NCBI RefSeq assembly: GCF_030384885.1
Contig: NZ_CP128613.1
Reading direction: 5' to 3' (one strand)
From: Escherichia coli
GTDB taxonomy: Bacteria; Pseudomonadota; Gammaproteobacteria; Enterobacterales; Enterobacteriaceae
DNA: 64,000 nt
Shown here: positions 26,807-59,018 of the stretch, one piece after another
Position numbering within the stretch: the first letter of the stretch is position 1
Layout: every line of letters starts with the position of its first letter
Made by a program: the position numbers and the translations under genes
The notes under the pieces: generated by a model
What the model saw: only the letters and a program-made list of their open reading frames with translations
Told to the model about the DNA's origin: nothing
Databases searched by the model: none

Positions 26807-26820
26807 CCAGGAGAACCATA

Positions 26821-32941: not shown

Positions 32942-33529
32942 ATGAGCCATGTCTGGGGACTGTTTTCCCATCCCGATCGTGAAATGCAGGTGATTAATCG
33001 CGAAAACGAAACGATTTCTCATCACTACACCCACCACGTTTTGCTGATGGCGGCGATTCCGGTGATTTGCGCCTTCATTGGCACTACACAGATTGGCTGG
33101 AATTTTGGCGATGGCACTATCCTGAAGTTATCCTGGTTCACCGGACTGGCGCTGGCCGTCTTGTTTTATGGCGTTATGCTGGCTGGGGTCGCGGTGATGG
33201 GGCGGGTCATTTGGTGGATGGCACGCAATTACGCGCAGCGTCCGTCGCTTGCGCACTGTATGGTCTTCGCGGGCTACGTTGCGACGCCGCTGTTTTTAAG
33301 CGGTCTGGTGGCGCTTTACCCGCTGGTCTGGTTGTGTGCGCTGGTCGGCACGGTGGCGCTGTTTTACACCGGCTACCTGCTTTACCTCGGTATTCCAAGC
33401 TTCCTGAATATCAACAAAGAGGAAGGCCTTAGCTTCTCCAGTTCGACGCTGGCGATTGGCGTGCTGGTACTGGAAGTGCTGCTCGCCCTTACCGTTATAC
33501 TATGGGGCTACGGTTATCGTTTGTTCTAG
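32942..33529 (+). CDS. yohC: Yip1-family inner membrane protein
   Basis: Start taken at MSHVWGLF. Confidence 0.8.
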   Translation: MSHVWGLFSHPDREMQVINRENETISHHYTHHVLLMAAIPVICAFIGTTQIGWNFGDGTILKLSWFTGLALAVLFYGVMLAGVAVMGRVIWWMARNYAQRPSLAHCMVFAGYVATPLFLSGLVALYPLVWLCALVGTVALFYTGYLLYLGIPSFLNINKEEGLSFSSSTLAIGVLVLEVLLALTVILWGYGYRLF

Positions 33530-33702
33530 CAAGTTCTTTTGCGTTGCATTGCTGGCGTAAATGTCAGCAATGCAGCATTTCCTCACGATTCTTCTTTGAC
33601 GATCGCACTTTTTGCTCGTTATGATGGCGTCGCTAGCCTCAGTAAATCCTTACTCCGGCGGTGCGCAACCTGTGCGCGTGAACCACTATCTGAATGCTCA
33701 TC

Positions 33703-34635: not shown

Positions 34636-34815
34636 GGGTAGGCAGGATAAGGCGTTTACGCCGCATCAGGCATTCGGAGCACGATGCCTGATGCGATGCT
34701 TGCGCATCTTATCAGGCCTACAAACGTGACGCGTCCGTAGGCAGGATAAGGCGTTCACGCCGCATCCGGCATTCGGTGCACGATGCCTGATGCGATGCTT
34801 CTATTTGCATCAGGC
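34636..34815. repeat. BIME: two tandem ~60-bp units each containing REP palindromes
   Basis: aggcaggataaggcgtt(t/c)acgccgcatc(a/c)ggcattcgg(a/t)gcacgatgcctgatgcgatgctt occurs twice. Confidence 0.8.
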
Positions 34816-43068: not shown

Positions 43069-43800
43069 TTAAATGCCGAGTGGGAAAATATCATGGCCTT
43101 GTTCCTGCCAACTGGTAAGTTGCTGCTGTTGGGCAGAGGTTCGATTTTCACCGCACCACACCAGCAATGTACGGCCTTCGAACAGTTCTGGGCGTAGTTG
43201 ATTGAGCGAGTGGGCGAGGACATCAATGCGCCATCCTTGTTGACTGGCAATCCAGCCCTCTAGCCACAGACGGGTGGTATCCTGAATATTCCAGCCAACC
43301 ACCAGCGCATCTTTACCCTGTTTTTTACGTGCCGAAGCCAGACAAATGGCGATGTAGTTGATCAGTACGCCGTCGAGGATCGCCAGCAGCGCCTGGAGAG
43401 TCGGTTGTTGGCACTGAAGCCGTCGGCGCAGAGGAATAAACAGGTGCGTGGTGAGTGTCTGGGCGGGGTAATCCTGACCGCGCTCTTTGATCCACGTTCG
43501 CAGGCTATGCAGATTGCCGCTTTGCAGGTAAGTCAGTAATGTTTCTTGCTGATCGCGCCAGCCGTTCTGCACATCAACATTTTCATTACTGAGCAGCATT
43601 TTAACTTTGCTGACCTGCACGCCGTTGTCGATCCAGCGTTTGATCTCGCGGATCCGGTCAATATCGGCATCATTGAACAGCCGATGACCGCCGTCTGTCC
43701 GTTGCGGTTTCAGCAATCCGTAACGCCTCTGCCACGCGCGTAACGTGACAGGGTTAATATCACAAAGCAACGCCACTTCACCAATTGTGTAAAGCGCCAT
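43069..43800 (-). CDS. mlrA: MerR-family regulator (curli/csgD activator)
   Basis: 243 aa; N-terminal MerR HTH MALYTIGEVALLCDINPVTLRAWQRRYGLL. Confidence 0.9.
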   Translation of the reverse strand: MALYTIGEVALLCDINPVTLRAWQRRYGLLKPQRTDGGHRLFNDADIDRIREIKRWIDNGVQVSKVKMLLSNENVDVQNGWRDQQETLLTYLQSGNLHSLRTWIKERGQDYPAQTLTTHLFIPLRRRLQCQQPTLQALLAILDGVLINYIAICLASARKKQGKDALVVGWNIQDTTRLWLEGWIASQQGWRIDVLAHSLNQLRPELFEGRTLLVWCGENRTSAQQQQLTSWQEQGHDIFPLGI

Positions 43801-44021
43801 CGTCTCACCCTTGCTCGCGAGGTCCCAGTTTAACTTTAGACGCAGTTTTGCGAACCAGGTAGTTTTGCCCGTTTTTTGTTCATCTATAGGGTGATTTTAT
43901 TTTTGCCAGGCGATTTTGAGTGATCGTACTCACGAATTCTCATTTTTCTGCAAGAGTTCAAAGAAAGTTAAACGCAGGCAATGTATGTTACGCGTTTTAA
44001 AGGGAAGTGTGGTTTGCGGGT

Positions 44022-45707
44022 ATGTACGATTTTAATCTGGTGTTGCTGCTGCTTCAGCAGATGTGCGTTTTTTTAGTCATTGCGTGGTTAATGAGTAAAA
44101 CGCCATTATTCATACCGTTAATGCAGGTCACGGTTCGTCTGCCGCATAAATTTCTCTGCTACATCGTCTTTTCCATCTTCTGCATCATGGGCACCTGGTT
44201 TGGGCTGCACATTGACGATTCTATTGCCAATACCCGTGCGATTGGTGCGGTAATGGGCGGCTTACTCGGCGGTCCGGTCGTCGGTGGGCTGGTTGGTCTG
44301 ACCGGCGGGTTACATCGATATTCGATGGGGGGCATGACCGCGCTAAGTTGCATGATCTCGACCATCGTTGAAGGATTGCTCGGCGGCCTGGTACACAGCA
44401 TCCTGATCCGTCGCGGGCGTACTGATAAAGTCTTTAATCCCATTACCGCGGGTGCCGTCACGTTCGTCGCTGAAATGGTGCAAATGCTGATCATCCTGGC
44501 TATCGCCCGACCTTATGAAGATGCGGTGCGTCTGGTGAGTAATATTGCTGCGCCAATGATGGTCACCAATACCGTCGGCGCGGCGCTGTTTATGCGTATA
44601 TTGCTCGATAAACGCGCGATGTTTGAAAAATACACCTCGGCTTTTTCTGCCACCGCACTGAAAGTGGCGGCTTCGACGGAAGGCATTTTGCGCCAGGGTT
44701 TTAACGAAGTGAACAGCATGAAAGTGGCACAGGTGCTGTATCAGGAGCTGGATATTGGTGCAGTCGCGATTACCGATCGAGAGAAATTGCTGGCTTTTAC
44801 CGGAATTGGTGACGACCACCATTTACCCGGCAAACCGATTTCTTCGACTTATACCTTAAAAGCGATTGAAACCGGTGAAGTGGTCTACGCTGATGGCAAC
44901 GAAGTACCTTATCGTTGCTCTTTGCATCCGCAATGCAAACTGGGGTCGACGCTGGTAATTCCGTTGCGTGGTGAAAATCAGCGGGTGATGGGTACCATCA
45001 AATTGTATGAAGCCAAAAACCGTTTATTCAGTTCAATCAATCGCACGCTGGGCGAGGGGATTGCGCAATTGCTTTCGGCGCAGATCCTCGCTGGGCAATA
45101 TGAGCGGCAAAAAGCGATGCTCACCCAGTCAGAGATCAAACTACTTCACGCCCAGGTGAACCCCCATTTTCTGTTCAATGCGCTTAACACCATTAAAGCG
45201 GTGATCCGACGCGACAGCGAACAGGCCAGTCAGCTGGTGCAGTATCTTTCCACTTTTTTCCGTAAAAACTTAAAGCGGCCTTCGGAGTTTGTGACTCTCG
45301 CCGACGAAATTGAACATGTGAATGCTTATCTGCAAATTGAAAAGGCGCGCTTCCAGTCGCGGTTGCAGGTCAACATTGCTATTCCGCAAGAATTATCCCA
45401 GCAGCAACTGCCCGCGTTTACCCTGCAACCGATAGTGGAAAACGCTATTAAACATGGGACATCACAACTGCTCGATACAGGGCGAGTGGAAATCAGCGCC
45501 CGACGTGAGGGGCAACATTTGATGCTGGAGATCGAAGACAATGCTGGTTTGTATCAACCGGTAACCAATGCCAGTGGGCTGGGGATGAATCTGGTGGATA
45601 AGCGTTTACGTGAACGGTTTGGCGATGACTATGGGATAAGCGTCGCCTGTGAACCTGATAATTACACCCGAATAACGTTACGACTGCCATGGAGGGACGA
45701 GGCATGA
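44022..45707 (+). CDS. btsS: LytS-type sensor histidine kinase (pyruvate sensing)
   Basis: 5TM-LytS N-domain, GAF, His-kinase motifs; start at MYDFNLV. Confidence 0.9.
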
Positions 45708-46423
45708 TTAAAGTCTTAATTGTCGATGACGAACCGTTAGCACGGGAGAACCTGCGCGTATTTTTGCAGGAGCAGAGTGATATTGAAATTGTCGGCGAGT
45801 GTTCAAACGCTGTAGAAGGGATCGGCGCGGTGCATAAACTGCGCCCGGACGTGCTGTTTCTCGATATCCAGATGCCGCGTATTAGCGGTCTGGAAATGGT
45901 GGGGATGCTCGACCCGGAACATCGTCCGTATATCGTTTTTCTCACCGCGTTTGACGAATACGCCATTAAAGCCTTTGAAGAACATGCATTTGATTATCTC
46001 CTGAAGCCAATTGATGAAGCGCGGCTGGAGAAAACGCTGGCGCGTTTGCGTCAGGAGCGCAGCAAGCAGGATGTTTCGCTGTTACCGGAAAATCAACAGG
46101 CGCTGAAATTTATCCCTTGTACGGGGCATAGTCGGATTTATTTGCTGCAAATGAGAGATGTAGCATTTGTCAGCAGTCGGATGAGCGGTGTCTACGTTAC
46201 CAGCCACGAAGGGAAAGAAGGTTTTACCGAACTGACTTTGCGCACCCTGGAGAGCCGTACACCACTACTGCGCTGCCATCGTCAGTACCTGGTTAACCTC
46301 GCGCATTTACAGGAGATTCGTCTGGAAGATAACGGCCAGGCCGAGTTGATTTTACGTAATGGCTTAACTGTTCCGGTCAGCCGCCGCTATCTGAAAAGTT
46401 TAAAAGAGGCGATTGGCCTGTAA
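45704..46423 (+). CDS. btsR: LytTR-family response regulator
   Basis: Receiver domain VLIVDDEP...D, LytTR C-terminus; ATGA overlap with btsS. Confidence 0.9.
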
Positions 46424-46469
46424 AAGACTGCTAAAATGGTTTTTTGCCTCATCAACACCTGAAGGCCTC

Positions 46470-46940
46470 ATGCTAAGTAACGATATTCTGCGCAGCGTGC
46501 GCTACATTTTGAAAGCCAATAATAACGACCTGGTGCGCATTCTGGCGCTGGGTAATGTCGAAGCCACTGCGGAACAGATCGCCGTCTGGCTACGCAAAGA
46601 AGACGAAGAAGGGTTTCAGCGTTGTCCGGACATTGTTCTGTCTTCATTCCTGAATGGCCTGATTTATGAAAAACGTGGCAAGGATGAGTCAGCTCCGGCA
46701 CTGGAGCCGGAACGTCGCATTAATAACAACATCGTGCTGAAAAAATTACGTATCGCGTTTTCGCTGAAAACTGATGATATTCTGGCGATCCTTACCGAAC
46801 AGCAGTTCCGCGTTTCGATGCCGGAAATTACGGCGATGATGCGTGCACCGGATCATAAAAACTTTCGTGAATGCGGCGATCAATTCATGCGTTATTTTCT
46901 GCGTGGGCTGGCAGCGCGCCAGCATGTGAAGAAAAGCTAA
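46470..46940 (+). CDS. yehS: DUF1456 protein
   Basis: Start at MLSNDILRS, internally duplicated domain. Confidence 0.8.
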   Translation: MLSNDILRSVRYILKANNNDLVRILALGNVEATAEQIAVWLRKEDEEGFQRCPDIVLSSFLNGLIYEKRGKDESAPALEPERRINNNIVLKKLRIAFSLKTDDILAILTEQQFRVSMPEITAMMRAPDHKNFRECGDQFMRYFLRGLAARQHVKKS

Positions 46941-46947
46941 GACGGGT

Positions 46948-46978
46948 ATGGCGGCCATGCGAAGAACATGGCCGCCGA
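46948..46978. terminator. Bidirectional terminator hairpin between convergent yehS and yehR
   Basis: tggcggccatg-cgaagaa-catggccgcc. Confidence 0.55.
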
Positions 46979-46982
46979 CAGA

Positions 46983-47444
46983 TTATTTCACTTCTTTAAA
47001 ACCAGCGGCTTTCATCACCAGTTCCATTTGCGCCATAGTGATACCTTTTTTGGCATCTTCAGCAGAAACGTTGATACCTGAAATACCCTGCAGGGCTTTA
47101 AAATCAACTTTTTCCATATCGATAGTCACGTTTTCCTGAGCATAGGTATCGGTAAAGGTTAATTTTTCTTCAACGCCAGGGATGTTTTTATATTTGGCAC
47201 TTAACGGCTCAAGTGTCTTGGCAGCATCTTCTTTGGTGGTTGCACCAATGGAGGCAAATTGAATTTTGGTTTCAGAAGATTGCTTAAGAACCTTGTCACC
47301 TTTGTAGACATAGGTAATAGCAATTTCAGTACCGTTCAGATTAGCGCTAAATTTCTTCGATTCTTCTTTGTCACCGCAGCCAGCAAGAGAGAAAACCAGA
47401 ACAGATGCAACAACAAGGGAAAACAGCTTATTGAAAGCCTTCAT
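46983..47444 (-). CDS. yehR: Lipoprotein (DUF1307)
   Basis: Lipobox FSLAGC; start at MKAFNKLF. Confidence 0.8.
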   Translation of the reverse strand: MKAFNKLFSLVVASVLVFSLAGCGDKEESKKFSANLNGTEIAITYVYKGDKVLKQSSETKIQFASIGATTKEDAAKTLEPLSAKYKNIPGVEEKLTFTDTYAQENVTIDMEKVDFKALQGISGINVSAEDAKKGITMAQMELVMKAAGFKEVK

Positions 47445-47575
47445 GTAAAACTCCATTTTATTTAATCAAGGAACTGGTGACCACACCAGGGGCCATATAG
47501 GATATGCCTAATACCTTGGCGTGAGCAGTCCGGAACTGGAGTAGAACTCTTTGTAAAAAGCACTATTTGTTCTTG

Positions 47576-49567
47576 TTACTCAAGCAAGGTTAATAATTGT
47601 TCGCAAAGCAAAACGCAGTTATTCATTGCTTCTCCCCGTGCCTCGCCTTCTGTATTACGAAATTGTCCCAACACATGTGCCAGCCGATAAAAACCCATCG
47701 CGGTGAGTTCATTGACCAGCAACTCTGACTGACTAATGGCACTCTGTTCCTGATAGCGCCAGCCATTATGGAGCAGTTGAATAAGCAACGCCTGACAGCG
47801 CATCAGTAACTGATGAGTGGTAGACGGTACAGGCAGAACGCTGGTAGAAGGTAGCGGTGCCACAGGCGAAGTTTCTGCGTCCAGTGCCCAGGCGCGGGTT
47901 TGCGTCATCATTACTCGTGGTTCCAGTGTCAATTGCCCCTCAGCAAAATTGATAAACCCAGAAACCAGACTAACGGGATCTTCTGTTTGTTGTAACAGAG
48001 CTGCCATGCGTTCAACAGCAAAGGGCGCACTGGCTGAAGCTGGCAGTGATAACGTCAGCACATTATCGTCACCTTCGCCACTGATTACCTGCGCATCCAG
48101 TGTCTGCCGACTGCTGTCCCAACCGAGTGAAATGCACTCTTCTACTGGCAGAATAAATAAGTTATCGACCTGGTTAAGCGGTCGTATGGCGGCTGGCGGA
48201 CGTTGGCGTAAATATTCCCGCAAAGCCACAATGCCCGGCTGGCGCAGTGGTGCGCTCAACATTTGCCAGGCATCAGGCGACAGCGGAACAACACTGCTTA
48301 AGCGGTTGCGGGTAGCTAACAGCAACTCGCCATCGGCACTGCGTTTTGCTGCTTGTGAAACAATTTGCCCACCCGCCAGCGCGCCAGCCTGAAAACTAAA
48401 CAGCCGCCGTTTTGCCGCTGGAGAGTTATCCTGTTCACTTCTCGGCCAACTGCGCGAAAGATGCAAAATACTGCCGGTGTCGGGATCGGTGAACCAGATG
48501 CGTAAACCATACCGCTCATTATCCTGCCAGCAACGCATACCTAGTGACACCAGCCGCAAATGATCAAGCTTTGCTTCGCCAGCAATGCCTGCGCCGACGA
48601 GCGTGCGCCACGGTATGGGCGGTACCTCACCGACACTGTCACGTCGCGCCATCTCTTGTGCACTGTTCAAGCGACTGGTTAACGCCGCAATCTGGCACAA
48701 GCATTTTCCGGCATGATAGTGGCTGGCGCGGGCGTGGAAGGCATCAACGCTTGCCCGTAGCTGTCGTAGTGATTCACTTACCCAACGCCAGTTGCAGCGT
48801 TCCGCCGCTTGCTGCGCGCGGCTGAAAGCGGCCTCGTAGTGGATTGGCGGTTGGCTGATCCCGCCCAGCCATAATGCCTGACTTAATTGCTGAACATATT
48901 GACGACATGCTTTACCTTCGTCGCTGGAAAACGGATCGTCAGATGATGTGACGTGTTCACTGTGCATCTGCCAGATCAAATGAGTAAATTCCGCTTGTTG
49001 ATTTTTGGCCTCGACGAAGGCCTGCACAGCCAGTGCTACGTGTTCACACAGCGTTCCTTCAATACAATCACAACGGGCGAAACGAATGCTGCTGCGGGAA
49101 TAAAAACGCACATCGCTCATCGGTAAGCGGGCAGAGGGAATTTCGCCCGGTGTGCAGAACAACTCAATGGTGATGCCTTTAGCGACCAGCGCCTGCGCGC
49201 GTTTACGCGTGGTATTGGGCAGGGTAGCCAGTTCTTCCTGCCAGATTGCCGGATCCCACTCTTCTTCTTTTTCCGTAGGCTGGGCGGTGGCACAAAGTCG
49301 TTGATAACTTAACACCAGCATCACGCGATGACGGCACATGCCGCTGGCCCCGCAGCTACATTGAGCCTCTTTCAGTGCCTGACTGTTCGCCAGCCGGGTA
49401 CGGACACCGTCACTGAAGGTGGCGATTAAAGCGCCGTTCTCATGGCAGATTTCCGGGACATTGCCATTTTCCAGTTCCTTAAGGCTGCGCTTCACAAAAC
49501 CAGCATTGCTTAACGCCGTCAGGGCCTGCGGTGTCAGTTCTAATAATTCCGGACGTAGTGAATTCAT
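47576..49567 (-). CDS. yehQ: SWIM zinc-finger protein, last gene of yehLMPQ
   Basis: CxC...CxH SWIM signature (CSCGASGMCRH) near N-terminus; start at MNSLRPEL gives ATGA overlap with yehP. Confidence 0.75.
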   Translation of the reverse strand: MNSLRPELLELTPQALTALSNAGFVKRSLKELENGNVPEICHENGALIATFSDGVRTRLANSQALKEAQCSCGASGMCRHRVMLVLSYQRLCATAQPTEKEEEWDPAIWQEELATLPNTTRKRAQALVAKGITIELFCTPGEIPSARLPMSDVRFYSRSSIRFARCDCIEGTLCEHVALAVQAFVEAKNQQAEFTHLIWQMHSEHVTSSDDPFSSDEGKACRQYVQQLSQALWLGGISQPPIHYEAAFSRAQQAAERCNWRWVSESLRQLRASVDAFHARASHYHAGKCLCQIAALTSRLNSAQEMARRDSVGEVPPIPWRTLVGAGIAGEAKLDHLRLVSLGMRCWQDNERYGLRIWFTDPDTGSILHLSRSWPRSEQDNSPAAKRRLFSFQAGALAGGQIVSQAAKRSADGELLLATRNRLSSVVPLSPDAWQMLSAPLRQPGIVALREYLRQRPPAAIRPLNQVDNLFILPVEECISLGWDSSRQTLDAQVISGEGDDNVLTLSLPASASAPFAVERMAALLQQTEDPVSLVSGFINFAEGQLTLEPRVMMTQTRAWALDAETSPVAPLPSTSVLPVPSTTHQLLMRCQALLIQLLHNGWRYQEQSAISQSELLVNELTAMGFYRLAHVLGQFRNTEGEARGEAMNNCVLLCEQLLTLLE

Positions 49568-50700
49568 GACTGAAGATTCTCCGCAAGCCAGGTAGCCAGT
49601 TCGCCCGGTGTCATGGCAGCTATTTGTGCGCCGACATTTACCAGCGCCTGGGCTGTATCGCGGTCGTAGCAAGGTGTTGCGGTGCTATCGAGCGCTGCCA
49701 GTCCCAGCACTTTGATGCCGCTCTGGACACACTTTTTCACCTGATGCGTCAGCAAAGATGATGAACCCCCTTCATAAAAATCGCTCACGAGTATGATGAC
49801 GCTTTTCGCTGGTTGTTCAATAAGTTGCCGACCATATTCCACGGCACTGGCGATATTGGTCCCGCCGCCCAATTGTACTTTCATTAATAACTCTACCGGA
49901 TCGGCAACGTCGGCAGTGAGATCGACGACGTTAGTGTCAAAAGCGACCAGATGGGTACGAATGCCGGGTAACTGCCATAAACAGGCCGCCATCACCGCTG
50001 AGTGGATCACCGAGTCAACCATCGATCCGCTTTGATCAACCAGTAACACCAGCTGCCATTGTTCGCTATGGCGCTTAATGCGACTGTTAAAGCGGGGGGA
50101 TTCGATATACAACTTGCCGTGTTGCGGGTGCCAGTGTTGCAGGTTGGCGCGCAGAGTACTTTTGAAATCGAAATTACGCGCCAGTGGAATAAATGAGCGG
50201 CGACGGCGATCGCGGACACCAGAAAAAGCCTGACGAACTTCCTTTGCCAGTCGCGCCATAATTTCTTCAACAACCTGGCGCACTATCCGGCGGGCGGCAG
50301 CCAGCACTTCGGGATTCATCAGATGTTTGGTGTGCAAAACGGCGCGTAACAGGCTTTCAGAGGGCTGCATACGTTCCAGCACGTCGAGATTTGTCACTAC
50401 ATCTTCAATGCCATAGCGCAGTACAGCATCGCTTTCCAGCCGCTCAATCACCTGTTGCGGAAACAGCGTGTGAATACTGTTGATCCAATCAGGGGTGGTG
50501 AGATTTGAGCCACCTAATCCACCGGAGCGTTCACCACGCTGGAGCCGTTCAGGATCGCGCCCGTACAGCCACTCCAGCGCGTGGTCCATCCGCCGGGCGT
50601 TGTCATCCAGCCCACAAAGCGTCGTTTCTGCCGCTTCGCCAAGAATTAATCGCCAGCGTTGTAGCTCACGAGTGGTCAGAAGATCGTTCAGTTCAGACAT
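49564..50700 (-). CDS. yehP: von Willebrand factor A (VWA) domain protein
   Basis: MIDAS motif LLVDQSGSM; start at MSELNDLL; overlaps yehM stop. Confidence 0.8.
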   Translation of the reverse strand: MSELNDLLTTRELQRWRLILGEAAETTLCGLDDNARRMDHALEWLYGRDPERLQRGERSGGLGGSNLTTPDWINSIHTLFPQQVIERLESDAVLRYGIEDVVTNLDVLERMQPSESLLRAVLHTKHLMNPEVLAAARRIVRQVVEEIMARLAKEVRQAFSGVRDRRRRSFIPLARNFDFKSTLRANLQHWHPQHGKLYIESPRFNSRIKRHSEQWQLVLLVDQSGSMVDSVIHSAVMAACLWQLPGIRTHLVAFDTNVVDLTADVADPVELLMKVQLGGGTNIASAVEYGRQLIEQPAKSVIILVSDFYEGGSSSLLTHQVKKCVQSGIKVLGLAALDSTATPCYDRDTAQALVNVGAQIAAMTPGELATWLAENLQS

Positions 50701-52972
50701 GGAAAACTCCCCAGTGTTGCAGTGATGCCAGTGCCTGCTGTTCGAGCTGTTGATGATGTGCAATGGCTTGCGGTGGGCAATGCAACGGCATTTGCAGCGC
50801 CGAAACGGGAAGCTGAGCGAGCTGGTAATGCTCAAGCACCTGATGCGCCAGCGTCCCGCGTTCTCGTGGCGGTAGCCAGGCCATCGCCGCGCGTAAATCG
50901 GGCAGGGCGTTAATAAAATCGGCGTCACTCAGTTGATTCAAATGGCTGCTGAAACCGGCGATAAATGCAGGCTGACTGGCCAGTTGATGGCGGGCTAATG
51001 CCAGCAAACCGTGCAGCGCCTCGCCAGATTGTGCCGGGGATAATTGTGCCAGCATCGTCAGCGCCGCTTCGGCACTGGCGTTGGGATGTTCCAGACGCAT
51101 CAGCGCGCCAAGGGCCGCACCGCGATCCAGCGCTGGGGCATGAATCGCCTGACTGCGACGTTCCAGTAAGGCTACCGCCGCAGAAAGCGAAACGCCGGGT
51201 AAATTAACGCCGCTATTTAGATCGCGCAGGATATGGCAAAGCGCCTGCCAGCTATGCAGGTGAGCGTGAAACTCCTTCTCATCCGGCCTGCCGTTGGATT
51301 CACATAGCCACAGTGTGCGATCGATAGCCGCGTATAACGTCGTCTGTAATATCTGCGCGCCTTGCATACCGCTGATTTCATCGAGCTGCCACAAGGCGTA
51401 AAGCACTTCCAGCGCCTGGCCCATTTCGGCAAACTGATTTTCCTGGGCGATTAATAATGTGAGTTGTTCCAGTAATTGCTGACTGAAGGACGCCAGACCC
51501 GCTAACGCTGCCTGGCTAAGACATGTGGTGATGCCGCTGATTCCACCCGCGTCCAGCATATCGGCTTCTAATTTATTGCGTGCGGCCTCCTGGAGTGTGG
51601 CACCAAAGCAGGCGGCTTCAATCAATGCCGCATGTTGGCTAAGTGGCTGGGTTAATGTCCAGCGTTCTTCACCGTTGCCCGCCAGCGTCAGTGTACTTCC
51701 TTGCTCGCGCACAATGCCGGGAATCTCCAGTATTGCCAACCGATGTAGCACCTGACTTTGCGCCAGTCCATCGGGGGTAAAGCGATTTAAGGTAAGCTCC
51801 GCCGGAAGAGAGATTCCGGTACGTTCCAGTTCGCAGGTGACATCTTTTGGCAGAGGTGGCTGTGGCGTCGAGGGGGCAAGTTTACCGAATCCGTCACCTG
51901 CTAATGTGTCTATCAACGTTACCAGTATCGGATCGGTATCGGGATGAATAACGCCGCGATAGCTCCACGGCAACGGCGCATTCAAGGCTTCTTTAATCAG
52001 CGAGCCTGCTATGGCATCCAGCCAGTCAGCGCGTAACGGTAGTGTATGACCGCGCAGCTGTGCCAGCGCCATCGCATGTAGATGAGCGGCAGCCATATCC
52101 GCGGTTGAAGCAGGCAAGTGGTGCTGGCGCAAACGGGTAAGAACCGTTTTTAGTAGTTGTTCACCTGCCTGCTGCAAACCTGACTGCCAGCACCAGTTTT
52201 GCCAGACCGGGGCTGGCATTCCTGAAAGGTATCCTGCCAGCACATCAAGGCGCTTTTCACTGTATGGCGTGAGATAGCAACCTGTAACGGCATCATCCTG
52301 TGAGAGCAATTCTGGCTTGTTAATTTCTTGCGGGCATTCGCGCCACATTTTTGCAAGTGCCGGAGCGTGCCAGCCTCCGCAGACGACTAATACGTCGCCA
52401 TTATTTTGCTGCATCGCCCATGCAATCCAGCGGGCCATAAAGGCTTCGCGCTGACGATTGAGTGCATCGCCGGAGGCGTCGCCCCGCAGTTGTGCAAAAT
52501 AGTGCGCCAGTGCAGAGGGTAATATAGTTTGCTGGCTTTCATCTTCGAACAAGTGATCCCACAAGGTGTCGCTGTTATCCATGCGGGTGGCACGCAGCAG
52601 CAAGGCCTGGCTTTCCTCTTGCATATCAGGCGAATCATCCTCTTCTTCACTTTGTGCCCAGCAAGGCAAATCGATGAAGTAAGTTTGTGCCTGAATACGA
52701 CGTGCGGCTTGTAGCGCCTGCCACTCCGGCGAAAATTCAGCAAATGGCGTCCAGGCACCACGCCCAGGGGCCGCACCGTCCTGATACTGGCAATAACTGT
52801 AAATAGCTACCGGAAGCTGGTGGGCTAACAACAGTTCGTCTACCCGGTCATTAAAATCAGCAGGGCCTTCAATCAATACGTATCGTGGCCGCTGTCTTTC
52901 GATTAACGATTTCACCAGCCTGGCACAGGCTGGGCTATGATGCCGGATGCCGACAATTAACGGCTCGCTCAT
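50693..52972 (-). CDS. yehM: Large uncharacterized protein of yehLMPQ operon
   Basis: 759 aa from MSEPLIVG; no motif I recognise. Confidence 0.75.
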   Translation of the reverse strand: MSEPLIVGIRHHSPACARLVKSLIERQRPRYVLIEGPADFNDRVDELLLAHQLPVAIYSYCQYQDGAAPGRGAWTPFAEFSPEWQALQAARRIQAQTYFIDLPCWAQSEEEDDSPDMQEESQALLLRATRMDNSDTLWDHLFEDESQQTILPSALAHYFAQLRGDASGDALNRQREAFMARWIAWAMQQNNGDVLVVCGGWHAPALAKMWRECPQEINKPELLSQDDAVTGCYLTPYSEKRLDVLAGYLSGMPAPVWQNWCWQSGLQQAGEQLLKTVLTRLRQHHLPASTADMAAAHLHAMALAQLRGHTLPLRADWLDAIAGSLIKEALNAPLPWSYRGVIHPDTDPILVTLIDTLAGDGFGKLAPSTPQPPLPKDVTCELERTGISLPAELTLNRFTPDGLAQSQVLHRLAILEIPGIVREQGSTLTLAGNGEERWTLTQPLSQHAALIEAACFGATLQEAARNKLEADMLDAGGISGITTCLSQAALAGLASFSQQLLEQLTLLIAQENQFAEMGQALEVLYALWQLDEISGMQGAQILQTTLYAAIDRTLWLCESNGRPDEKEFHAHLHSWQALCHILRDLNSGVNLPGVSLSAAVALLERRSQAIHAPALDRGAALGALMRLEHPNASAEAALTMLAQLSPAQSGEALHGLLALARHQLASQPAFIAGFSSHLNQLSDADFINALPDLRAAMAWLPPRERGTLAHQVLEHYQLAQLPVSALQMPLHCPPQAIAHHQQLEQQALASLQHWGVFHV

Positions 52973-52982
52973 GCATCTTTCC

Positions 52983-54071
52983 TCACGGCAGGCGGTGGCG
53001 AGCTTGATAATAAGCCTGCCAGTGAGCTTCTTTATGTGTAGCGACACGCTGTTCGAAGTAACGGCGCAGACGTGCGCGATCTTCTTCGTTATCTTTGACG
53101 ATGGTTCCGGCAATACAGTCTACCAGGTCGGCAGGCTCCCCAGCGCGATTCGCTAAAAACCAGGCGCGGAAACCCACGGCGTGTGCTACGTTAACGGCTT
53201 CAGCGGTGGACATAATCGCTGTAAGGGTATCCATTGAGGTTTTCTTTTCGCCGTTGGCACGCAGATCGCGGAAGGTGCGGACCAGTAACTCCAGTACCGC
53301 GTCAGGCACTTTATGCGGAATACCGCTATGGGCCAGCAAACGTGCCGAAGCGCTGGCGACAAGCTCCAGCTCCTGGGCGAAATCCATAATCGGAAAGACA
53401 GTTTCAAAATCGAAGCGACGCTTGAGTGCGGCACTCATTTCATTGACGCCGCGATCGCGGGTATTGGCAGTAGCAATAATATTAAAGCCTTCCCGCGCAT
53501 AGAGCTGACTGGCTTCACCAGTGAGTTCCGGCACCGTCATAACCCTGTCAGAAAGCATACCTAACAGACAGTCTTGTACTTCCAGTGGTGTACGCGTTAT
53601 CTCTTCAAAACGGACAATTTTGCCGTCGCGCATTCCCTGGTAGAGCGGGGCAGGGACCAGCGCTTCCGTTGACGGACCATGGTTGATAAGCAGGGCGTAG
53701 TTCCAGCCGTACTTGATTTGATCTTCGGTGGTAGATGCGCCGCCCTGGATGGTTAACCCGGCATCGCCGCTAATAGCGGTTGCCAGTAATTCAGACAGGA
53801 GCGATTTTGCGGTGCCAGGTTCCCCCACCAACATCAAACCGCGCCCGGTAGCGAGAGTGACTAACATGCGTTCGACAGCGGAGGGGCTAATCACGACTTT
53901 ACGGCTAATATTTTGTGCTTCGTCGCCAAGGATAAAAACACGGGCCGCAGGCAAACTTAACTGCCAACCGGGCGGGCAAGGTGCGTGATCATTTTGTTTT
54001 AATTTTGCCAGTTCATCGGCGTATAACACAGCGGCAGGCGGACGCTGCAGATGATTATTCTGCGGTGACAT
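52983..54071 (-). CDS. yehL: MoxR-like AAA+ ATPase
   Basis: Walker A LVGEPGTAKS, Walker B/sensor motifs; start at MSPQNNHL. Confidence 0.85.
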   Translation of the reverse strand: MSPQNNHLQRPPAAVLYADELAKLKQNDHAPCPPGWQLSLPAARVFILGDEAQNISRKVVISPSAVERMLVTLATGRGLMLVGEPGTAKSLLSELLATAISGDAGLTIQGGASTTEDQIKYGWNYALLINHGPSTEALVPAPLYQGMRDGKIVRFEEITRTPLEVQDCLLGMLSDRVMTVPELTGEASQLYAREGFNIIATANTRDRGVNEMSAALKRRFDFETVFPIMDFAQELELVASASARLLAHSGIPHKVPDAVLELLVRTFRDLRANGEKKTSMDTLTAIMSTAEAVNVAHAVGFRAWFLANRAGEPADLVDCIAGTIVKDNEEDRARLRRYFEQRVATHKEAHWQAYYQARHRLP

Positions 54072-54181
54072 ATATTCATCCCTGAAATGTATTAATGAAA
54101 TAAACGATATTTTACGCGCAATAAATGTTTGGCGCATTAGTTGTTTGAGCGGAAAATATCTGGAAAGCAGATCACAGTAAA

Positions 54182-54265
54182 TAAAAAAACCTGCTGGTGA
54201 GGCAGGTTCTTTTATTTACTACTTTCAGGCCTAACACCACGGCCTGTGCAACATCGTGTTCCAAC
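54182..54265 (-). ncRNA. orzO: Antisense antitoxin sRNA (OrzO-like) of type I TA locus
   Basis: Minus-strand promoter TTGCAA-17 nt-TATAAT (-10 at 54272-54277), 5' region complementary to toxin leader (54246-54265 vs 54412-54431, 19/20), hairpin acctgc..gcaggt + U7 terminator at 54182-54207. Confidence 0.7.
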
Positions 54266-54294
54266 GAACGAATTATAACCATCGGTGGACCCCG

Positions 54295-54322
54295 TTGCAA
54301 TTAAGATAATGAGATTTATAAT
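54295..54322 (+). promoter_or_regulatory. Promoter of toxin mRNA (TTGCAA-16 nt-TATAAT), giving ~175-nt 5' leader
   Basis: -35 ttgcaa 54295-54300 (palindromic, shared with divergent sRNA promoter), -10 tataat 54317-54322. Confidence 0.65.
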
Positions 54323-54502
54323 CCTGACTGTTGGGACGTTGCGCCGGATCGAACCCATTTCAAGTCCTGGCTACCGGACGGGTGGTGCCGCAGGTAGTGC
54401 CCTGATCCGGAGTGCAACATCGTGGTCCAACATACGTAAACCAGTATCGACAGGCAGTGTAAGGGTAAGATGCTGGTGTTGCGCTCCTTAATAAGGAGAG
54501 CG

Positions 54503-54592
54503 GATGGACACGCTGACACAAAAGTTAACCGTGCTCATTGCCGTACTGGAGTTATTAGTGGCTCTGTTACGGCTGATTGATTTGTTGAAGTA
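54503..54592 (+). CDS. zorO: Type I toxin, 29-aa hydrophobic peptide (ZorO-like)
   Basis: ORF MDTLTQKLTVLIAVLELLVALLRLIDLLK preceded by strong SD taaggagag; matches my recollection of ZorO from E. coli O157:H7; not in ORF track (too short). Confidence 0.7.
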
Positions 54593-54615
54593 ACGGGCAA
54601 ATTGAAACGCATCTA

Positions 54616-54645
54616 AGGGGGAAAATACCGCTTCCCCCTTTAATA
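54616..54645 (+). terminator. Rho-independent terminator of toxin mRNA
   Basis: agggggaa-aataccgc-ttccccct followed by ttaataaaat. Confidence 0.6.
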
Positions 54646-54792
54646 AAATGATTATTGCTTCCATTAATTCACCCGATAACTTTTTTCTTATTTATTAATT
54701 CATCGATTTTATAATTAACGTACATTTGACCGGGATGTGAGTATTTATGGTGGCTATTGGCGAAAAATATCTGGAAACCAGATCGCGGAAAA

Positions 54793-54874
54793 TAAAAAAA
54801 CCTGCTGGTGAGGCAGGTTCTTTTATTTACTACTTTGACGATAACTTGCTGATTGTGCAACATTTCGTACCAAC
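54793..54874 (-). ncRNA. Second Orz-like sRNA (orphan: no cognate toxin ORF downstream)
   Basis: Intact minus-strand promoter TTGCAA(54904-54909)-17-TATAAT(54881-54886), terminator hairpin 54800-54818 + U-run; seed gtgcaacatttcgtaccaac differs from unit 1. Confidence 0.6.
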
Positions 54875-54986
54875 GAGTAAATTATAACCATATCCACACT
54901 CCATTGCAATTCAGTGAGTGAGATTTATAATCCTGCCCCTTGGGAGGTTGTGCCGGATCGGACCAATTTGAATTATTTAGAGTATA

Positions 54987-55304
54987 TTATTCTATTTCTT
55001 GGTTGAATATGTTCTGTAGTTCACGATTAAAAATGGCTATTACCGTTTCTGGTGATTCACCTCGTAATTTTCGCTCATCAATAAATTCATCTCTTATATA
55101 AATCAACGCATCATTTATTAGCGGGTCGGCATCTTCTCCATCACGTTGATGAAATGTTGGACGTAGCCGGAATCGTTCCTGTCGATAGACGGAACCTGTA
55201 AATAATTCAGAGCATTTATGGATCTCAAGTCTGAAGGAAAACGGATCTTCAGGTACAGGGACTTCATAATCATAAGTAGCGACCAGCTCTTTTTGCACGA
55301 TCAT
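54987..55304 (-). CDS. yehK: Uncharacterized small protein
   Basis: 105 aa in conserved position between yehL and yehI. Confidence 0.75.
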   Translation of the reverse strand: MIVQKELVATYDYEVPVPEDPFSFRLEIHKCSELFTGSVYRQERFRLRPTFHQRDGEDADPLINDALIYIRDEFIDERKLRGESPETVIAIFNRELQNIFNQEIE

Positions 55305-55364
55305 CGCTTTTCCCGGTGGTAAGTCGTGTTGATAACGGGCAGTCGCATCACTGCCCGCTGTGTT

Positions 55365-58300
55365 TTAATGGAAAATGACGTCAGGTGCGCTTAACGCTTC
55401 ACTCAAATCAAACGTATCGAGTTCGGCAAAAGTGACAGATTTATTGTCACGGTACACTCGAAGAGAACGGAAGCTCATTAGCGCTTTGCTATCAGCACTG
55501 TAGTGGTTAAAACCGGGTGAAAACTTAAGGACCAGCCGATACTCGCCCAGGTCATAGACACATGCGTCCTCAAAACCTGACTCCCAGCCTTTGTATCGCA
55601 TTCCCATAAGTTGCCCAACGGTTGCGGATTTACCTTCCCAGCGAGTCAGGCTGTTACTGGCTGACTCGTCAGGTGTGAGCAGCACTGTGCGCCGCATCAA
55701 CTGGCGAAAAGGCGGCATAATTTCGTAATCGGCAAAAACCTGTGCAAATTCACTGCGCATTTCTGCTGTCATTTCTAACGGGTGGGCAATGCCAATCAGA
55801 GCATCCGCAGGCAGGTCAATTGGCTCATCTTGTGCGTTGCAGAACTCCCTCTCAGCGGCCACACGAAAGGCGTTAAGTAAACGACGCGGTTCATTTGCCG
55901 GATAAACCGCCCATATTAATCGCTGAGTAACCAGGCGAGTAAAGGGATGATTAACAAACAGAGAATGAAAATCTGCCAGCGACCAGCGTCGAGTGGTGCG
56001 TAGGGCAGTTTCAAGACGCGGGAGCAGGTTTTTGCTCACCTGAGTGGCATCTTTTTTTAGCCCTTTTAGTCGGGCCAGTGCCTCGGGTGCTTTCAGCTGA
56101 TCGTCATCGGCGCGCAACCGGGGAACACTTTTCTGGCGAACGTTTTGCTGATCAAAGATAACCGGGTTGAGGTTTTCATCGAAGCGAACGGTAAACTGCC
56201 GGGGTCCAAAATCAAATATCAACGCCTGCGGATCATCCAGGCCCAGTGTTGGGACTAATCTGTCCGCTAACTCTTCCTGGCTTAGTCCACGATTTTCTGC
56301 GACCACCTGAAGAAATTCCGCCGCGTTATCACGTAAGGGACGGGATTTCGCCCGTTGCGATATATGATGCAGCTGTATCAGCGCCATATCATTATTCATC
56401 AGGGTAAGTATATTCAGACCACTGACAGCACGGGCAGATTTGCCCTCTTGAGGCCAGGCAAGGATCTGTGTCGTCAGATCCCGTGCCGTGCTTTCGTCGC
56501 CAAAGAGACTTAACGCCAGAAATGCCCAGTTGTCTTTTGCGGGAGCACCAGCTTGTTGCCACGCGGTGAAAAGATCCCAGGCAAAAGCGGCCAGCGTTTG
56601 TGGCTGGCAGAACGTTTTCAGTTGTTCCAGCCCGCAATAAAAACGTCCGCCCTGGGTAAAGCGCAGCATTTCGCCAATAATTTCCAGAGCGTCATCAGTA
56701 ACAGGTTGATTATTCGTGATAAGTCTCGGTCTGGACCACATTGTCGGATGCCAGAAATCAGGAGCTTTTGGAATGCGTGTTGGGTAAATCTCTATTGGAC
56801 TCTGTTTAAGTAATTGATCCAGGGCAGGCCATACATCTGTACGCTGCCAGCGGTTTGCCACGGTTTGCAGTAATTCGCCATGCCCTTGTTCATACAGTAA
56901 ACGCAGAGCGCTGAGTGCCGCTTCGCTGTTATCGCCAGACCTGGCAAAGATTAATGGGATCAGCGCCGTAGCCGTATGCTCCGGCCATTGTAAAATCCAC
57001 TGGCGAGCCAGATTACGCTGGCCCGCAAAACGATGCCAGACGCGGGCAACGGGCAGCGCCAGTTCTGTTGCGCCAAAATGAATCAGCAGCGGAAATATCT
57101 CTTTGGGATGTCGGGCAAAGGCGGTGATTAATCCGGGCAAAGCATCGGTACCCAGGACACTTAACAGATATTCTACCCCGGTGTAATGAAAATCAGCCGC
57201 AACAATTTGTTGCCAGCACGATACCGCCATTTCGCGCGGCATCTGCGCGATAAGGTACAGATTCCACACTCCCCAACGCTTTTCATCAGTGTAATTAAAT
57301 TTGCGTTGGAAAGTTCGCCACCCCTCCATCAACGCAACGCTATCTTGTGCCAGTAATGCGCTGGCGGCCTCTTCCCGGTAGTGTTTATTTTCAGTCTGTT
57401 TTGCCTGATAATTGAGCAATCTTCCTAATGAAGTATGTGTCTCTAGTTGATCGGTATCCAGAGCATCCAACTGTCCTGTGAGAATAAACTCATTAAACTT
57501 CCACCTGTGATCTTCAAAACCTAATTCCCGCAAGAAGGTATCTGCCCCTCTGCTTACGAGACGTTCGTCAAAAGACATGGCGCTAAAATGGTCAATTGCA
57601 GTTTGCTGTTCCGGCGTCCAGTGTTTATTCGGCGACCTATACGCTTGCGGTACAAGCGTAAGTTCAGGTAGCGAAAAGTGAGTTATGGAAGTCTTTTTCC
57701 TGCCACGCCATGGTGGTGAAACGAGGATTTCAGGCAGACTGCTGTTATCGGTGCTATCAATAACCGGTTTTGGCGATGCCGATAAATAACTATTCACCAC
57801 TGCCCGGGCTTGAGTACTTAACCACGGGATCACCTCTTCTGCCAGTTGTGGCTGCGATGCCATCAGCGTTTGTAACAGCGTACGCCAGTATTCATCACGT
57901 GCTTTTTGCTGTGCAGGCAGCTTTTTGTCTTCGATGATAGGATAACCAGGGCGCGTAGGGGGGGCTTTTAACGCCAGTAGTTCTGCCAGTGCGGCGAGCG
58001 TCGCATGGGGAAAGTTTTTACTGTATTTAGCCACACGCTGCAGGCTGGGTTTGTTTTTATCGGCAACTAACAGCAAGATGCGAATAATTTGCGGATGGTT
58101 AATTTGTACCAGCAGGCTACCGCAATCTTCTTTATGGGCATACATTGCCAGGTGTGGAATGGCTGCCAGTCCTTGTTCGCGCAAAAGGGCAGCGCAGGCC
58201 GCGTAGCCGAAGTGGTTTTCATGCGACATGTAGCTGGCTTCCCGATCGCTAAATATATCCTGGCTCCAGTAGCGTTCGAGTTTTTTCACCGCTCTGGGGT

Positions 58301-59015
58301 CATTAGCAACAACTTTTAACCACTCCTTAGAATGAAAATGAGTCCGCGGGCATTCAAGGCCTACCAACTCATTGGCGATTTCTGGTTTCTCCGGGAGGAT
58401 GAGTGCAATAAAAGGACGGCGAACTTTGGGTATTCCTGGCAGTGCGGCAATGAGTTTGTCGGCGCAACGCTGCCAGCAGCTTTCCTCTGCCAGAGAGAGA
58501 TGCTTACGCAGTCGGAGATCGAATTCGTTATAGGTTTCTGAGCGATAACCATAACCATCGTCCTCGTTCTGATACTGCAATGTTACTACCAGAGGATCAC
58601 TCTCATAACACCGTACAATAAACTGGCGTGCAATCACCACTTCAGTCGCATATTCCAGTCCCTCTTGTTGGACGATTTCGTCGAGCAACTGTTGGCTATC
58701 ATTTTGCGCGATACAGGCTAGCGCCGCCATTGTCCGGGCCGGAATTGAGGGTTTGTGCTCGCCGATCAAGTTGATGGCTTGCGTAATGGCCGACTGCCAC
58801 TCCAGTGAAAAATTTTCATAACGCCAGACGATGTTTTTTTTCTTCTCAGCAATGTGTAGCAATTTATCACCCAGTGTCTGGATGAGGCTTTCAGTGATAA
58901 CAGGCACCGGTTCGCCCGGCCAATTGCGATGGCTGAGTGGTGTTTTGCCTTTTTTATATTTCAGTTCCAGTTGGGCGTTATCCGCCAGCCACGGTAATTC
59001 CTTGTCCATGCTCAT
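55365..59015 (-). CDS. yehI: Giant uncharacterized protein, MolR/YehI family (DUF4132)
   Basis: 1216-aa ORF paralogous to the two upstream genes; start may be 2 codons downstream. Confidence 0.8.
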   Translation of the reverse strand: MSMDKELPWLADNAQLELKYKKGKTPLSHRNWPGEPVPVITESLIQTLGDKLLHIAEKKKNIVWRYENFSLEWQSAITQAINLIGEHKPSIPARTMAALACIAQNDSQQLLDEIVQQEGLEYATEVVIARQFIVRCYESDPLVVTLQYQNEDDGYGYRSETYNEFDLRLRKHLSLAEESCWQRCADKLIAALPGIPKVRRPFIALILPEKPEIANELVGLECPRTHFHSKEWLKVVANDPRAVKKLERYWSQDIFSDREASYMSHENHFGYAACAALLREQGLAAIPHLAMYAHKEDCGSLLVQINHPQIIRILLLVADKNKPSLQRVAKYSKNFPHATLAALAELLALKAPPTRPGYPIIEDKKLPAQQKARDEYWRTLLQTLMASQPQLAEEVIPWLSTQARAVVNSYLSASPKPVIDSTDNSSLPEILVSPPWRGRKKTSITHFSLPELTLVPQAYRSPNKHWTPEQQTAIDHFSAMSFDERLVSRGADTFLRELGFEDHRWKFNEFILTGQLDALDTDQLETHTSLGRLLNYQAKQTENKHYREEAASALLAQDSVALMEGWRTFQRKFNYTDEKRWGVWNLYLIAQMPREMAVSCWQQIVAADFHYTGVEYLLSVLGTDALPGLITAFARHPKEIFPLLIHFGATELALPVARVWHRFAGQRNLARQWILQWPEHTATALIPLIFARSGDNSEAALSALRLLYEQGHGELLQTVANRWQRTDVWPALDQLLKQSPIEIYPTRIPKAPDFWHPTMWSRPRLITNNQPVTDDALEIIGEMLRFTQGGRFYCGLEQLKTFCQPQTLAAFAWDLFTAWQQAGAPAKDNWAFLALSLFGDESTARDLTTQILAWPQEGKSARAVSGLNILTLMNNDMALIQLHHISQRAKSRPLRDNAAEFLQVVAENRGLSQEELADRLVPTLGLDDPQALIFDFGPRQFTVRFDENLNPVIFDQQNVRQKSVPRLRADDDQLKAPEALARLKGLKKDATQVSKNLLPRLETALRTTRRWSLADFHSLFVNHPFTRLVTQRLIWAVYPANEPRRLLNAFRVAAEREFCNAQDEPIDLPADALIGIAHPLEMTAEMRSEFAQVFADYEIMPPFRQLMRRTVLLTPDESASNSLTRWEGKSATVGQLMGMRYKGWESGFEDACVYDLGEYRLVLKFSPGFNHYSADSKALMSFRSLRVYRDNKSVTFAELDTFDLSEALSAPDVIFH

Positions 59016-59018
59016 TCC

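Follow-up and report, generated by a model that had tools for sequence, protein, structure and literature searches.

The question raised by four adjacent genes of Escherichia coli, yehL, yehM, yehP and yehQ, is whether they form a functional unit and, if they do, with which partners and in what role. The genes were analyzed within a stretch of 64,000 nucleotides from contig NZ_CP128613.1 (assembly GCF_030384885.1), which is referred to here as the window. No functional study of yehLMPQ was found in the literature searched (full text), and no solved structure of YehM or YehQ was found either, so that the original prediction, made from the letters of the window, was right to call the function undescribed. 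Based on the comparison of loci, the domain assignments and the structure models, yehLMPQ and the neighbouring DUF4132 giants can be regarded with high confidence as a five-part module. Four anonymous y-genes thus become a defined module in which YehL is the motor, YehP the MIDAS adaptor, YehM a predicted TIKI-type hydrolase and YehQ a SWIM/OB subunit, with variable WGR-DUF4132 proteins as putative inputs. For the mechanism and role as a whole, a nucleic-acid-linked sensor-switch-effector complex is proposed, tentatively, as a reading that is somewhat more doubtful than probable.

Operon layout and the five-component module

The four genes occupy the following positions in the window:

52983-54071, minus strand: yehL, 362 amino acids (aa)
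50693-52972, minus strand: yehM, 759 aa
49564-50700, minus strand: yehP, 378 aa
47576-49567, minus strand: yehQ, 663 aa

The same four genes are annotated in the 100% identical chromosome of E. coli 2013C-4282 (NZ_CP027579). Longer upstream starts are possible according to the mechanical list of open reading frames (ORFs), and the annotated starts match those of the homologues. Direct reading of the sequence places the stop codon of yehL (TGA) at 52985-52983, which is followed by a 10-nucleotide gap holding GAGGAAAG and by the ATG of yehM at 52972. The yehM and yehP genes overlap by 8 nucleotides (ATGTCTGA, 50700-50693), and yehP and yehQ share an ATGA overlap (49567-49564). The tight coupling that had been claimed for the four genes can therefore be read directly at all three junctions. 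The yehLMPQ operon is real, far beyond chance, because the ratio of nonsynonymous to synonymous substitution rates (dN/dS) against another E. coli lineage is 0.04-0.12 and because the gene order is kept across phyla.

Relatives of YehM fall into 2266 clusters at 50% identity with E ≤ 0.001. With one genome taken per species (100,044 species), at least 560 YehM loci were confirmed, of which 80 were retrieved. A total of 84 loci, drawn from Enterobacterales, Xanthomonadales, Burkholderiales, Myxococcota and many filamentous Actinobacteria, were translated in six frames and searched with the window proteins by single-round phmmer. YehL was found in 83 of them, YehP in 81, YehQ in 79 and DUF4132 in 77, and several of the loci missing a component end at a contig edge (e.g. 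L009, L022 and L074). With very few exceptions, the genes lie on one strand in the order DUF4132 (one to five tandem copies)-L-M-P-Q. Seven further Pfam-annotated contigs show the same module; two of these were reached by starting from DUF4132 proteins, which led to positions beside L-M-P(-Q). All-against-all clustering of the flanking ORFs of the 84 loci revealed no sixth family conserved beyond genus-level synteny, and the flanks vary between genera. A linkage limited to Escherichia had been set beforehand as an outcome that would speak against the original prediction; the linkage was instead found in at least four phyla. The co-occurrence of yehLMPQ with molR-family genes, which had been suggested as a check, is seen in the 77 loci with DUF4132. 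The WGR/DUF4132 paralogs had been described as flanking the operon. Their adjacency is correct, but their status as a flank is not, since the DUF4132 giants are the conserved fifth component.

One genome (L087, 3227-23468) carries two variants of the module in tandem. In the first, YehM and YehP are fused (1180 aa), and in the second, an unannotated 501-aa protein and a HEAT_2 protein replace the DUF4132 giants. A gene with an ATP-dependent DNA ligase domain lies nearby on the opposite strand.

Domain architecture of the components

Of the seven MoxR subfamilies, one is named the YehL subfamily, with YehL as its type member, and YehL is one of only two MoxR proteins in E. coli K-12 (PMC3893208). 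In Pfam it matches AAA_5 at 2.6e-34 and bpMoxR at only 0.0024. The protein possesses a Walker A motif (GEPGTAK89S), a Walker B motif (VRFE156E157I), a sensor-1 motif (ATAN203) and an Arg motif (KR218R219F), and these motifs (GEPGTAKS, VRFEEI, ATAN and KRRF) are at least 98% conserved among 84 homologues. Throughout the family, Walker B contains E-E in place of D-E. Of the 84 loci, 81 contain a VWA_CoxE gene, and in the window YehP is encoded by the second gene downstream of yehL. By its AAA_5 domain, its motifs and its pairing with a VWA protein, YehL is a MoxR-family AAA+ ATPase of the YehL subfamily, for which a ring structure and ATPase activity are predicted.

YehP matches VWA_CoxE in Pfam at 2.2e-71 (residues 151-372) and VWA_2 at 2.5e-8, and has a helical N-terminal region. 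Its MIDAS is complete (D222-Q-S224-G-S226, GGGT281 and SD307) and is conserved in 83 homologues, which makes YehP, as judged from its sequence, a CoxE-type VWA protein with an intact MIDAS. A search of the PDB sequences with YehP gave no solved structure at a significant E-value. In MoxR-VWA pairs, the VWA/MIDAS domain grips a client peptide, and the AAA+ ring alters the conformation of the client with ATP (PMC7159879). Natural fusions of YehM and YehP, about 1180 aa in length, occur in several distant clusters and in one genome assembly, and argue that YehM and YehP work in physical contact.

This pairing could belong to a maturation or cofactor-insertion chaperone, in which a client would receive a metal or cofactor from the YehL-YehP motor, or be activated by it, with the DUF4132 protein of about 1250 aa as a large subunit. 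The CoxE-type nature of YehP fits such a role, as do NorQ among the distant solved relatives of YehL, the weak NCBIfam matches of YehL to GvpN and of YehP to a putative cobaltochelatase, and the match of YehL to a PHROG annotated "porphyrin biosynthesis" (CobS-like) at 1e-10. However, the chelatase, GvpN and NorQ matches are far under the family cut-offs. Known systems of this kind adjoin the genes of their client enzymes, whereas no further family is co-conserved in the 84 loci, and WGR, SWIM and OB domains together with one to five fast-evolving paralogues and a hypervariable cassette would not be expected of a chaperone. The name of molR, which refers to a molybdate-utilisation phenotype as cited in PMC8533742 and PMC4245954, would become meaningful with a cofactor-related role, but molR is a pseudogene in K-12 (PMC3950696). 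The chaperone explanation is weakened mainly because a linked client gene is missing and because of the nature of the accessory domains, and it is considered unlikely. If it were true, it would reveal an unrecognised client.

Among solved structures, those nearest to YehL in sequence are Midasin AAA domains (7e-10), followed far more weakly by MoxR 2r44, McrB and NorQ. As a separate MIDAS protein is also present, a midasin-like factor for the assembly or disassembly of a ribonucleoprotein, for example the ribosome, may be envisaged, in which the MIDAS would pull off a factor while the WGR, OB and SWIM domains would bind RNA. The synthetically slow growth caused by deletion of molR together with lepA (PMC4245954) would agree with this idea. 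On the other hand, the similarity between YehL and Midasin is confined to the AAA_5 domain, and the interaction with lepA may come from polarity on metG, because molR adjoins metG and is a pseudogene in K-12. The patchy distribution and the variable paralogues also argue against a role in a universal particle, which leaves this explanation very unlikely.

YehM corresponds to Pfam DUF5682 (1.1e-97), and no solved relative was found, the profile search of PDB sequences included. The AlphaFold2 model, built from a 90-sequence alignment (predicted local distance difference test score (pLDDT) 93.4, predicted template-modelling score 0.90), consists of an N-terminal domain (residues ~1-250) with the TIKI/TraB/ChaN/Ere fold, an α/β fold with a parallel β-sheet core, and a C-terminal part of HEAT-like helical repeats. 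The TIKI fold is assigned with good confidence on the basis of this model despite sequence similarity to the TIKI superfamily at noise level: when each of the 90 homologues was scanned against Pfam, the notable secondary families were ChaN (three members, best 5.5e-3) and TraB_PrgY_gumN (two members, best 1.7e-2). Eight residues (R10, H11, E35, H51, E83, D101, R175 and H202) are invariant in the alignment and lie in the motifs G-x-R-H-H, L-I-E-G-P and G-G-x-H, which directly follow the core strands. The TIKI superfamily was set out in the RRSP structure paper, and its active members use two His and two Glu residues to hydrolyse peptide or ester bonds (PMC6254334). Because the invariant H11, E35, E83 and H202 would fit this 2His/2Glu motif, YehM is predicted to be an enzyme-like subunit; its catalytic competence is likely, and it is the probable enzymatic subunit of the module. 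The resemblance of YehM to haem-binding ChaN could be counted in favour of a cofactor-insertion chaperone, but the invariant His and Glu residues are typical of active TIKI hydrolases, which sets YehM apart from the binding-only members.

The Pfam matches of YehQ to SWIM are weak (0.0036 and 0.24). Nevertheless, the SWIM zinc-binding signature, C70-x-C72-x5-C78-x-H80, is invariant among 58 homologues, and a second finger (CDCx6CxH) is less conserved. In the model of YehQ (pLDDT 92.8), two β/α zinc-finger units, a four-helix bundle, two β-barrels and a C-terminal helical bundle are arranged as follows:

residues ~39-95 and ~133-190: SWIM fingers
residues 216-311: four-helix bundle
residues ~331-430 and ~470-561: OB folds
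C-terminal part: helical bundle

The OB folds resemble those of Teb1, Stn1 and RPA32, and a profile search of PDB sequences found no solved structure of YehQ. The earlier description of YehQ as a SWIM zinc-finger protein is upheld by the invariant signature, and the OB folds come in addition to it. The length of YehQ varies from about 605 to 709 aa among Escherichia. The YehQ of the window resembles E. fergusonii proteins (95%) more than it does the main E. coli cluster (90%), and its C-terminal ~60 residues are the most divergent, with 77% identity to E. coli sequence type (ST) 540.

The fifth component is represented in the window by three tandem genes:

55365-59009, minus strand: DUF4132 paralogue 1 (YehI-like), 1214 aa, no WGR domain detected; assigned by annotation and DUF4132 family homology
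59019-62813, minus strand: DUF4132 paralogue 2 (MolR-like), 1264 aa, WGR at residues 7-69 and DUF4132 at residues 988-1173
62826-64000, minus strand: 3' part of DUF4132 paralogue 3 (MolR-like, with WGR), 1265 aa in the full record; the gene continues to ~66623

In the identical record (L001), paralogue 3 lies at 29251-33048 and the whole array at 21790-33048. Paralogue 2 matches Pfam WGR at 3.5e-17 and DUF4132 at 8.9e-50. When the DUF4132 family profile was compared with the PDB, WGR domains alone were matched, including 2ra8 and PARP3; the WGR domain is the DNA-break sensor of PARP2 and PARP3 (PMC8190142). The first ~80 residues of the family (WGR) and the last ~450 are well conserved, whereas the middle ~700 are variable. 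Single-copy arrays almost always contain a WGR domain, and multi-copy arrays mix proteins with and without it, although divergent WGR domains may have escaped the single-sequence query. The three paralogues of the window are 34-47% identical to one another (47% between paralogues 3 and 2), and their number compares with two in typical E. coli and one to five elsewhere. Paralogue 1 shows 84% identity to YehI of E. coli ST540 with a dN/dS of 0.30, and contains a hypervariable cassette at residues ~400-700 (window 56909-57809). This cassette is 35-66% identical to the common YehI allele, whereas its flanks are 93-100% identical. The cassette allele of the window occurs in 48 of 5426 complete E. 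coli genomes; elsewhere, about one third of the segment aligns, at ~85% identity. A successful sublineage of ST131 carries a resistance transposon in its DUF4132 region (PMC9334617).

Between the DUF4132 genes and yehL, the window contains additional features:

54072-55364: insert between the DUF4132 genes and yehL, outside the conserved module
54183-54258 and 54794-54867, minus strand: orz antitoxin RNAs (Rfam OrzO-P RF02083, 98.9 and 90.6 bits; gathering score 60)
54504-54593, plus strand: zorO-like toxin ORF of 29 aa, MDTLTQKLTVLIAVLELLVALLRLIDLLK, from the ORF list
54987-55304, minus strand: yehK, found in Escherichia loci only

The zor/orz locus (54149-54972) is a tandem duplication of ~610 nucleotides with the toxin ORF in the first unit only, and the second OrzO-P copy, directly next to yehK, is left as an orphan antitoxin. 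The type I toxin-antitoxin locus previously noticed at the flank of the operon is thus identified as two OrzO-P RNAs and one ZorO-like ORF beside yehL. In Klebsiella, the DUF4132 genes directly abut yehL, and both yehK and zor/orz are absent; in E. coli ST540, yehK and 304 bp separate the DUF4132 genes from yehL, and zor/orz is absent. Therefore, zor/orz and yehK are lineage-specific insertions inside the module. In another locus (L088), a RelE/HTH toxin-antitoxin pair lies at 20367-21051, downstream of the VWA gene, and is followed by an unannotated 688-aa gene, possibly the SWIM gene, which runs off the end of the locus. This pair would be a second, unrelated toxin-antitoxin insertion inside a module.

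Proposed mechanism and biological role

In the proposed mechanism, YehL would form a MoxR-type AAA+ ring, and YehP would act as its VWA/MIDAS adaptor and be physically tied to YehM. Hydrolysis of ATP by YehL, relayed by YehP, could remodel or gate YehM, in which a TIKI-superfamily (protease/esterase-type) domain would sit on a HEAT-repeat scaffold. YehM is the best candidate for the switched part, because its gene lies between yehL and yehP, because it is sometimes fused to YehP, and because it carries the only enzyme-like domain, on a HEAT scaffold well shaped for gripping partners. The WGR-DUF4132 paralogues and YehQ may recognise nucleic acid, or a partner bound to nucleic acid, and thereby provide input or targeting, since theirs are the sole domains suited to outside recognition and since WGR, OB and SWIM are best known from nucleic acid. 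Because the DUF4132 proteins are variable, duplicated and partly hypervariable, yet keep a conserved C-terminal part, they could serve as interchangeable inputs docking onto a machine that stays the same. We infer from these features that the five components form a complex in which the signal runs from the putative nucleic-acid-binding proteins through the motor to YehM and, from there, to a substrate of YehM. Such a sensor-switch-effector logic would suit a stress or conflict response tied to DNA, either damaged or foreign, better than a cofactor-insertion chaperone. As the biological role of the putative complex, an immune-like conflict system and a DNA-stress or repair function are given about equal weight.

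Expression of yehL and yehM goes up in hns/stpA mutants, and the intergenic region upstream is bound by H-NS (PMC3686432). BglJ-RcsB activates the molR promoter, and molR is disrupted in K-12 (PMC3950696). The molR gene has been described as a member of the LexA regulon, and the DdrO radiation/desiccation regulon of Deinococcus includes WGR and DUF4132 proteins (PMC8533742). A LexA-like box, AACTGGATATAAATACAGGG, was found at 33055-33074 of L001 (~66630-66649 in window numbering), directly upstream of the first DUF4132 gene, which is consistent with the listing of molR in the LexA regulon. A similar box is present in one Klebsiella locus (L004). These boxes, together with the published LexA control of E. 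coli molR and DdrO control of the Deinococcus proteins, would fit an SOS-type machine for DNA repair or clearing, in which WGR-DUF4132 and YehQ would bind DNA that is damaged or single-stranded, and the motor and the TIKI-like hydrolase would remove or cleave proteins stuck on DNA, by a logic analogous to that of Cdc48 with a DNA-protein-crosslink protease. The WGR domain, the OB folds of the RPA/Stn1/Teb1 type, the protease-type fold modelled for YehM and the near-core chromosomal status in E. coli also agree with a repair function. However, a general repair function would be expected to be less scattered than the observed patchy spread (at least 560 loci in 100,044 species), and the remaining ~80 loci do not keep the damage box. 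Disruption of the DUF4132 genes is frequent and carries no obvious cost, as in the K-12 pseudogenes and the transposon of the ST131 sublineage, and copy-number variation and a hypervariable cassette would be unusual for repair factors. Repair is thus a rather unlikely explanation of the module.

Alternatively, the same parts could form a hitherto unrecognised immune-like system, carried in the E. coli near-core genome and by many actinomycetes and myxobacteria, in which tandem, diversifying WGR-DUF4132 proteins with their hypervariable cassette and the SWIM/OB subunit would sense aberrant or foreign nucleic acid, YehL-YehP would set a threshold, and YehM would be an effector that cleaves a host or invader protein. 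This role is possible, though far from probable. Several observations weigh against the nucleic-acid-linked sensor-switch-effector complex in general or against its defensive form in particular. Proteins or RNA can also be the ligands of OB folds, SWIM fingers and WGR domains. None of the PADLOC-DB v2 defence models matched any of seven proteins at E ≤ 0.01, and E ≤ 5 yielded one meaningless match (0.063). No defence island was present in the seven annotated neighbourhoods, and no recognisable toxic effector domain was found in the module. Of 5426 E. coli genomes, 5353 carry the four-gene region, at one chromosomal site; relatives of YehM were found in only 39 of 72,556 plasmid records, of which several have the size of a chromosome, and phage genomes contain essentially none. 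A search for CTGT-N8-ACAG with at most one mismatch upstream of the module in 83 loci gave 7 matches against ~6 expected, and of these only that of Klebsiella resembles the E. coli box.

Likewise, the Gram-positive GAAC-N4-GTTC box gave four matches in 43 Myxococcota and actinobacterial loci, probably within coding sequence. As the boxes are not enriched beyond Escherichia and Klebsiella, the DNA-damage link is not general, and DNA-damage control was dropped as a general feature of the module. The suggestion of a stress- or defence-related machine is accordingly upheld in part: the variable sensor-like paralogues and the phyletic pattern speak for it, whereas the lack of PADLOC matches, the fixed E. 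coli locus, the rarity on plasmids and the near-absence from phages do not.

The values of dN/dS against E. coli ST540 are 0.04 for yehL, 0.06 for yehP, 0.095 for yehM, 0.12 for yehQ and 0.16-0.30 for the DUF4132 genes, compared with 0.01-0.03 for the flanking mlrA, btsSR and yehSR. All module genes are under purifying selection, and the constraint falls from the motor to the putative input proteins. A silenced, decaying remnant of horizontal acquisition with no current function in E. coli might account for the DUF4132 genes that are pseudogenes or disrupted in some lineages and for the many truncated YehQ and YehM fragments in databases. Nevertheless, all four yeh genes have intact frames at dN/dS values of 0.04-0.12, 5202 of 5426 E. 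coli genomes contain at least 80% of the region, the catalytic motifs are invariant, and the module is conserved across phyla. A mere remnant is therefore extremely improbable.

The allele of the four-gene region in the window is 90-95% identical to those of almost all other strains, whereas the neighbouring btsSR is 95-99% identical. Across 43069-59009 of the window, synonymous divergence from ST540 (L085) is 0.07-0.10 for mlrA and btsS, and 0.17-0.36 from btsR through yehQ to yehI, which suggests that the whole yeh region in the lineage of the window is an old or recombinant allele. Six PHROGs of unknown function (phrog_30700, 33984, 31592, 29006, 20839 and 36295) give end-to-end matches to the yeh and DUF4132 proteins, at scores typical of near-identity (47576-62813). 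A phage origin was considered from these matches and rejected, since they are near-identical to the E. coli yeh genes; they are probably host chromosome that was swept into prophage predictions. Elsewhere in the window, Rfam matches on the plus strand at 33618-33698 (Peptidase-S11 cis-regulatory RNA, 73.1 bits, presumably upstream of pbpG) and at 34641-34718 (naRNA4/CssrE, 74.2 bits) are unrelated to the module.

Comparison with known systems

The genes themselves and the name of the YehL subfamily were already known. The literature searched contained no functional study of this subfamily, which is named after YehL. Nor was any account found there of the module with its five parts, of a TIKI-type DUF5682, of OB folds beside SWIM fingers in YehQ or of the hypervariable cassette of YehI. 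The present analysis singles out residues of YehL, YehP and YehM for mutation. The module is genetically tractable in E. coli, and release from H-NS silencing will probably be needed to see it.

Within the TIKI superfamily (Tiki, TraB/PrgY, ChaN, erythromycin esterases, HopBA1, RRSP and PMT), the YehM domain differs by its fused helical/HEAT region of ~500 residues and by its position inside a MoxR-VWA operon. Midasin/Rea1, the best solved match of YehL, likewise combines an AAA_5 motor with a MIDAS domain. In contrast to the separate small motor and MIDAS proteins of the Yeh module, Midasin is a single eukaryotic protein of ~4900 residues with six fused AAA domains and acts on pre-60S. Mg and Co chelatases (BchI/BchD/BchH and CobS/CobT/CobN) also consist of AAA+, VWA and a third subunit of ~1250 residues, and give weak profile matches. 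However, the DUF4132 proteins do not resemble CobN or BchH, and no tetrapyrrole pathway genes lie near the Yeh module.

Closer in their motor parts are CbbQ-CbbO, NorQ-NorD, CoxD-CoxE and GvpN, which, like the Yeh system, use an AAA_5 ATPase and a VWA protein with a MIDAS, YehP being encoded by the second gene after yehL. The motor is presumably alike, that is, a hexameric ring with a client-gripping VWA adaptor (PMC7159879). These systems have no counterpart of the DUF5682, SWIM/OB and WGR-DUF4132 proteins, and the Yeh module has no linked client gene in the 84 loci. RavA-ViaA of E. coli likewise pairs a MoxR ATPase with a VWA partner, both encoded in one operon (PMC3893208). It belongs to another MoxR subfamily and has two genes, whereas the Yeh module has five components; furthermore, RavA possesses a LARA domain, and its partners are lysine decarboxylase, Nuo and fumarate reductase.

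The vWA-MoxR ternary conflict systems share a MoxR ATPase, a CoxE-derived vWA protein and putative components for sensing invaders and releasing effectors (PMC7159879). They are also enriched in actinomycetes, myxobacteria and other bacteria with large genomes (PMC7159879), and their diversifying sensors are comparable with those proposed here. In contrast, their defining VMAP-C, iSTAND, FtsH and beta-propeller components are absent from the Yeh module according to Pfam scans of the four proteins, and they carry effector domains on the vWA protein, whereas YehP has no C-terminal effector. The description of these systems by Kaur et al. 2020 does not mention SWIM, WGR, YehL or DUF5682 (PMC7159879). 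Because the defining third components or the client linkage are absent, the Yeh module is not a member of the vWA-MoxR ternary conflict systems, the chelatases or the Cox/Nor/Cbb maturation systems. If the module does respond to a nucleic acid trigger in conflict or DNA stress, it would add a new effector and a new sensor logic to the MoxR-VWA family, and would explain the large expansions of DUF4132 in actinomycetes.

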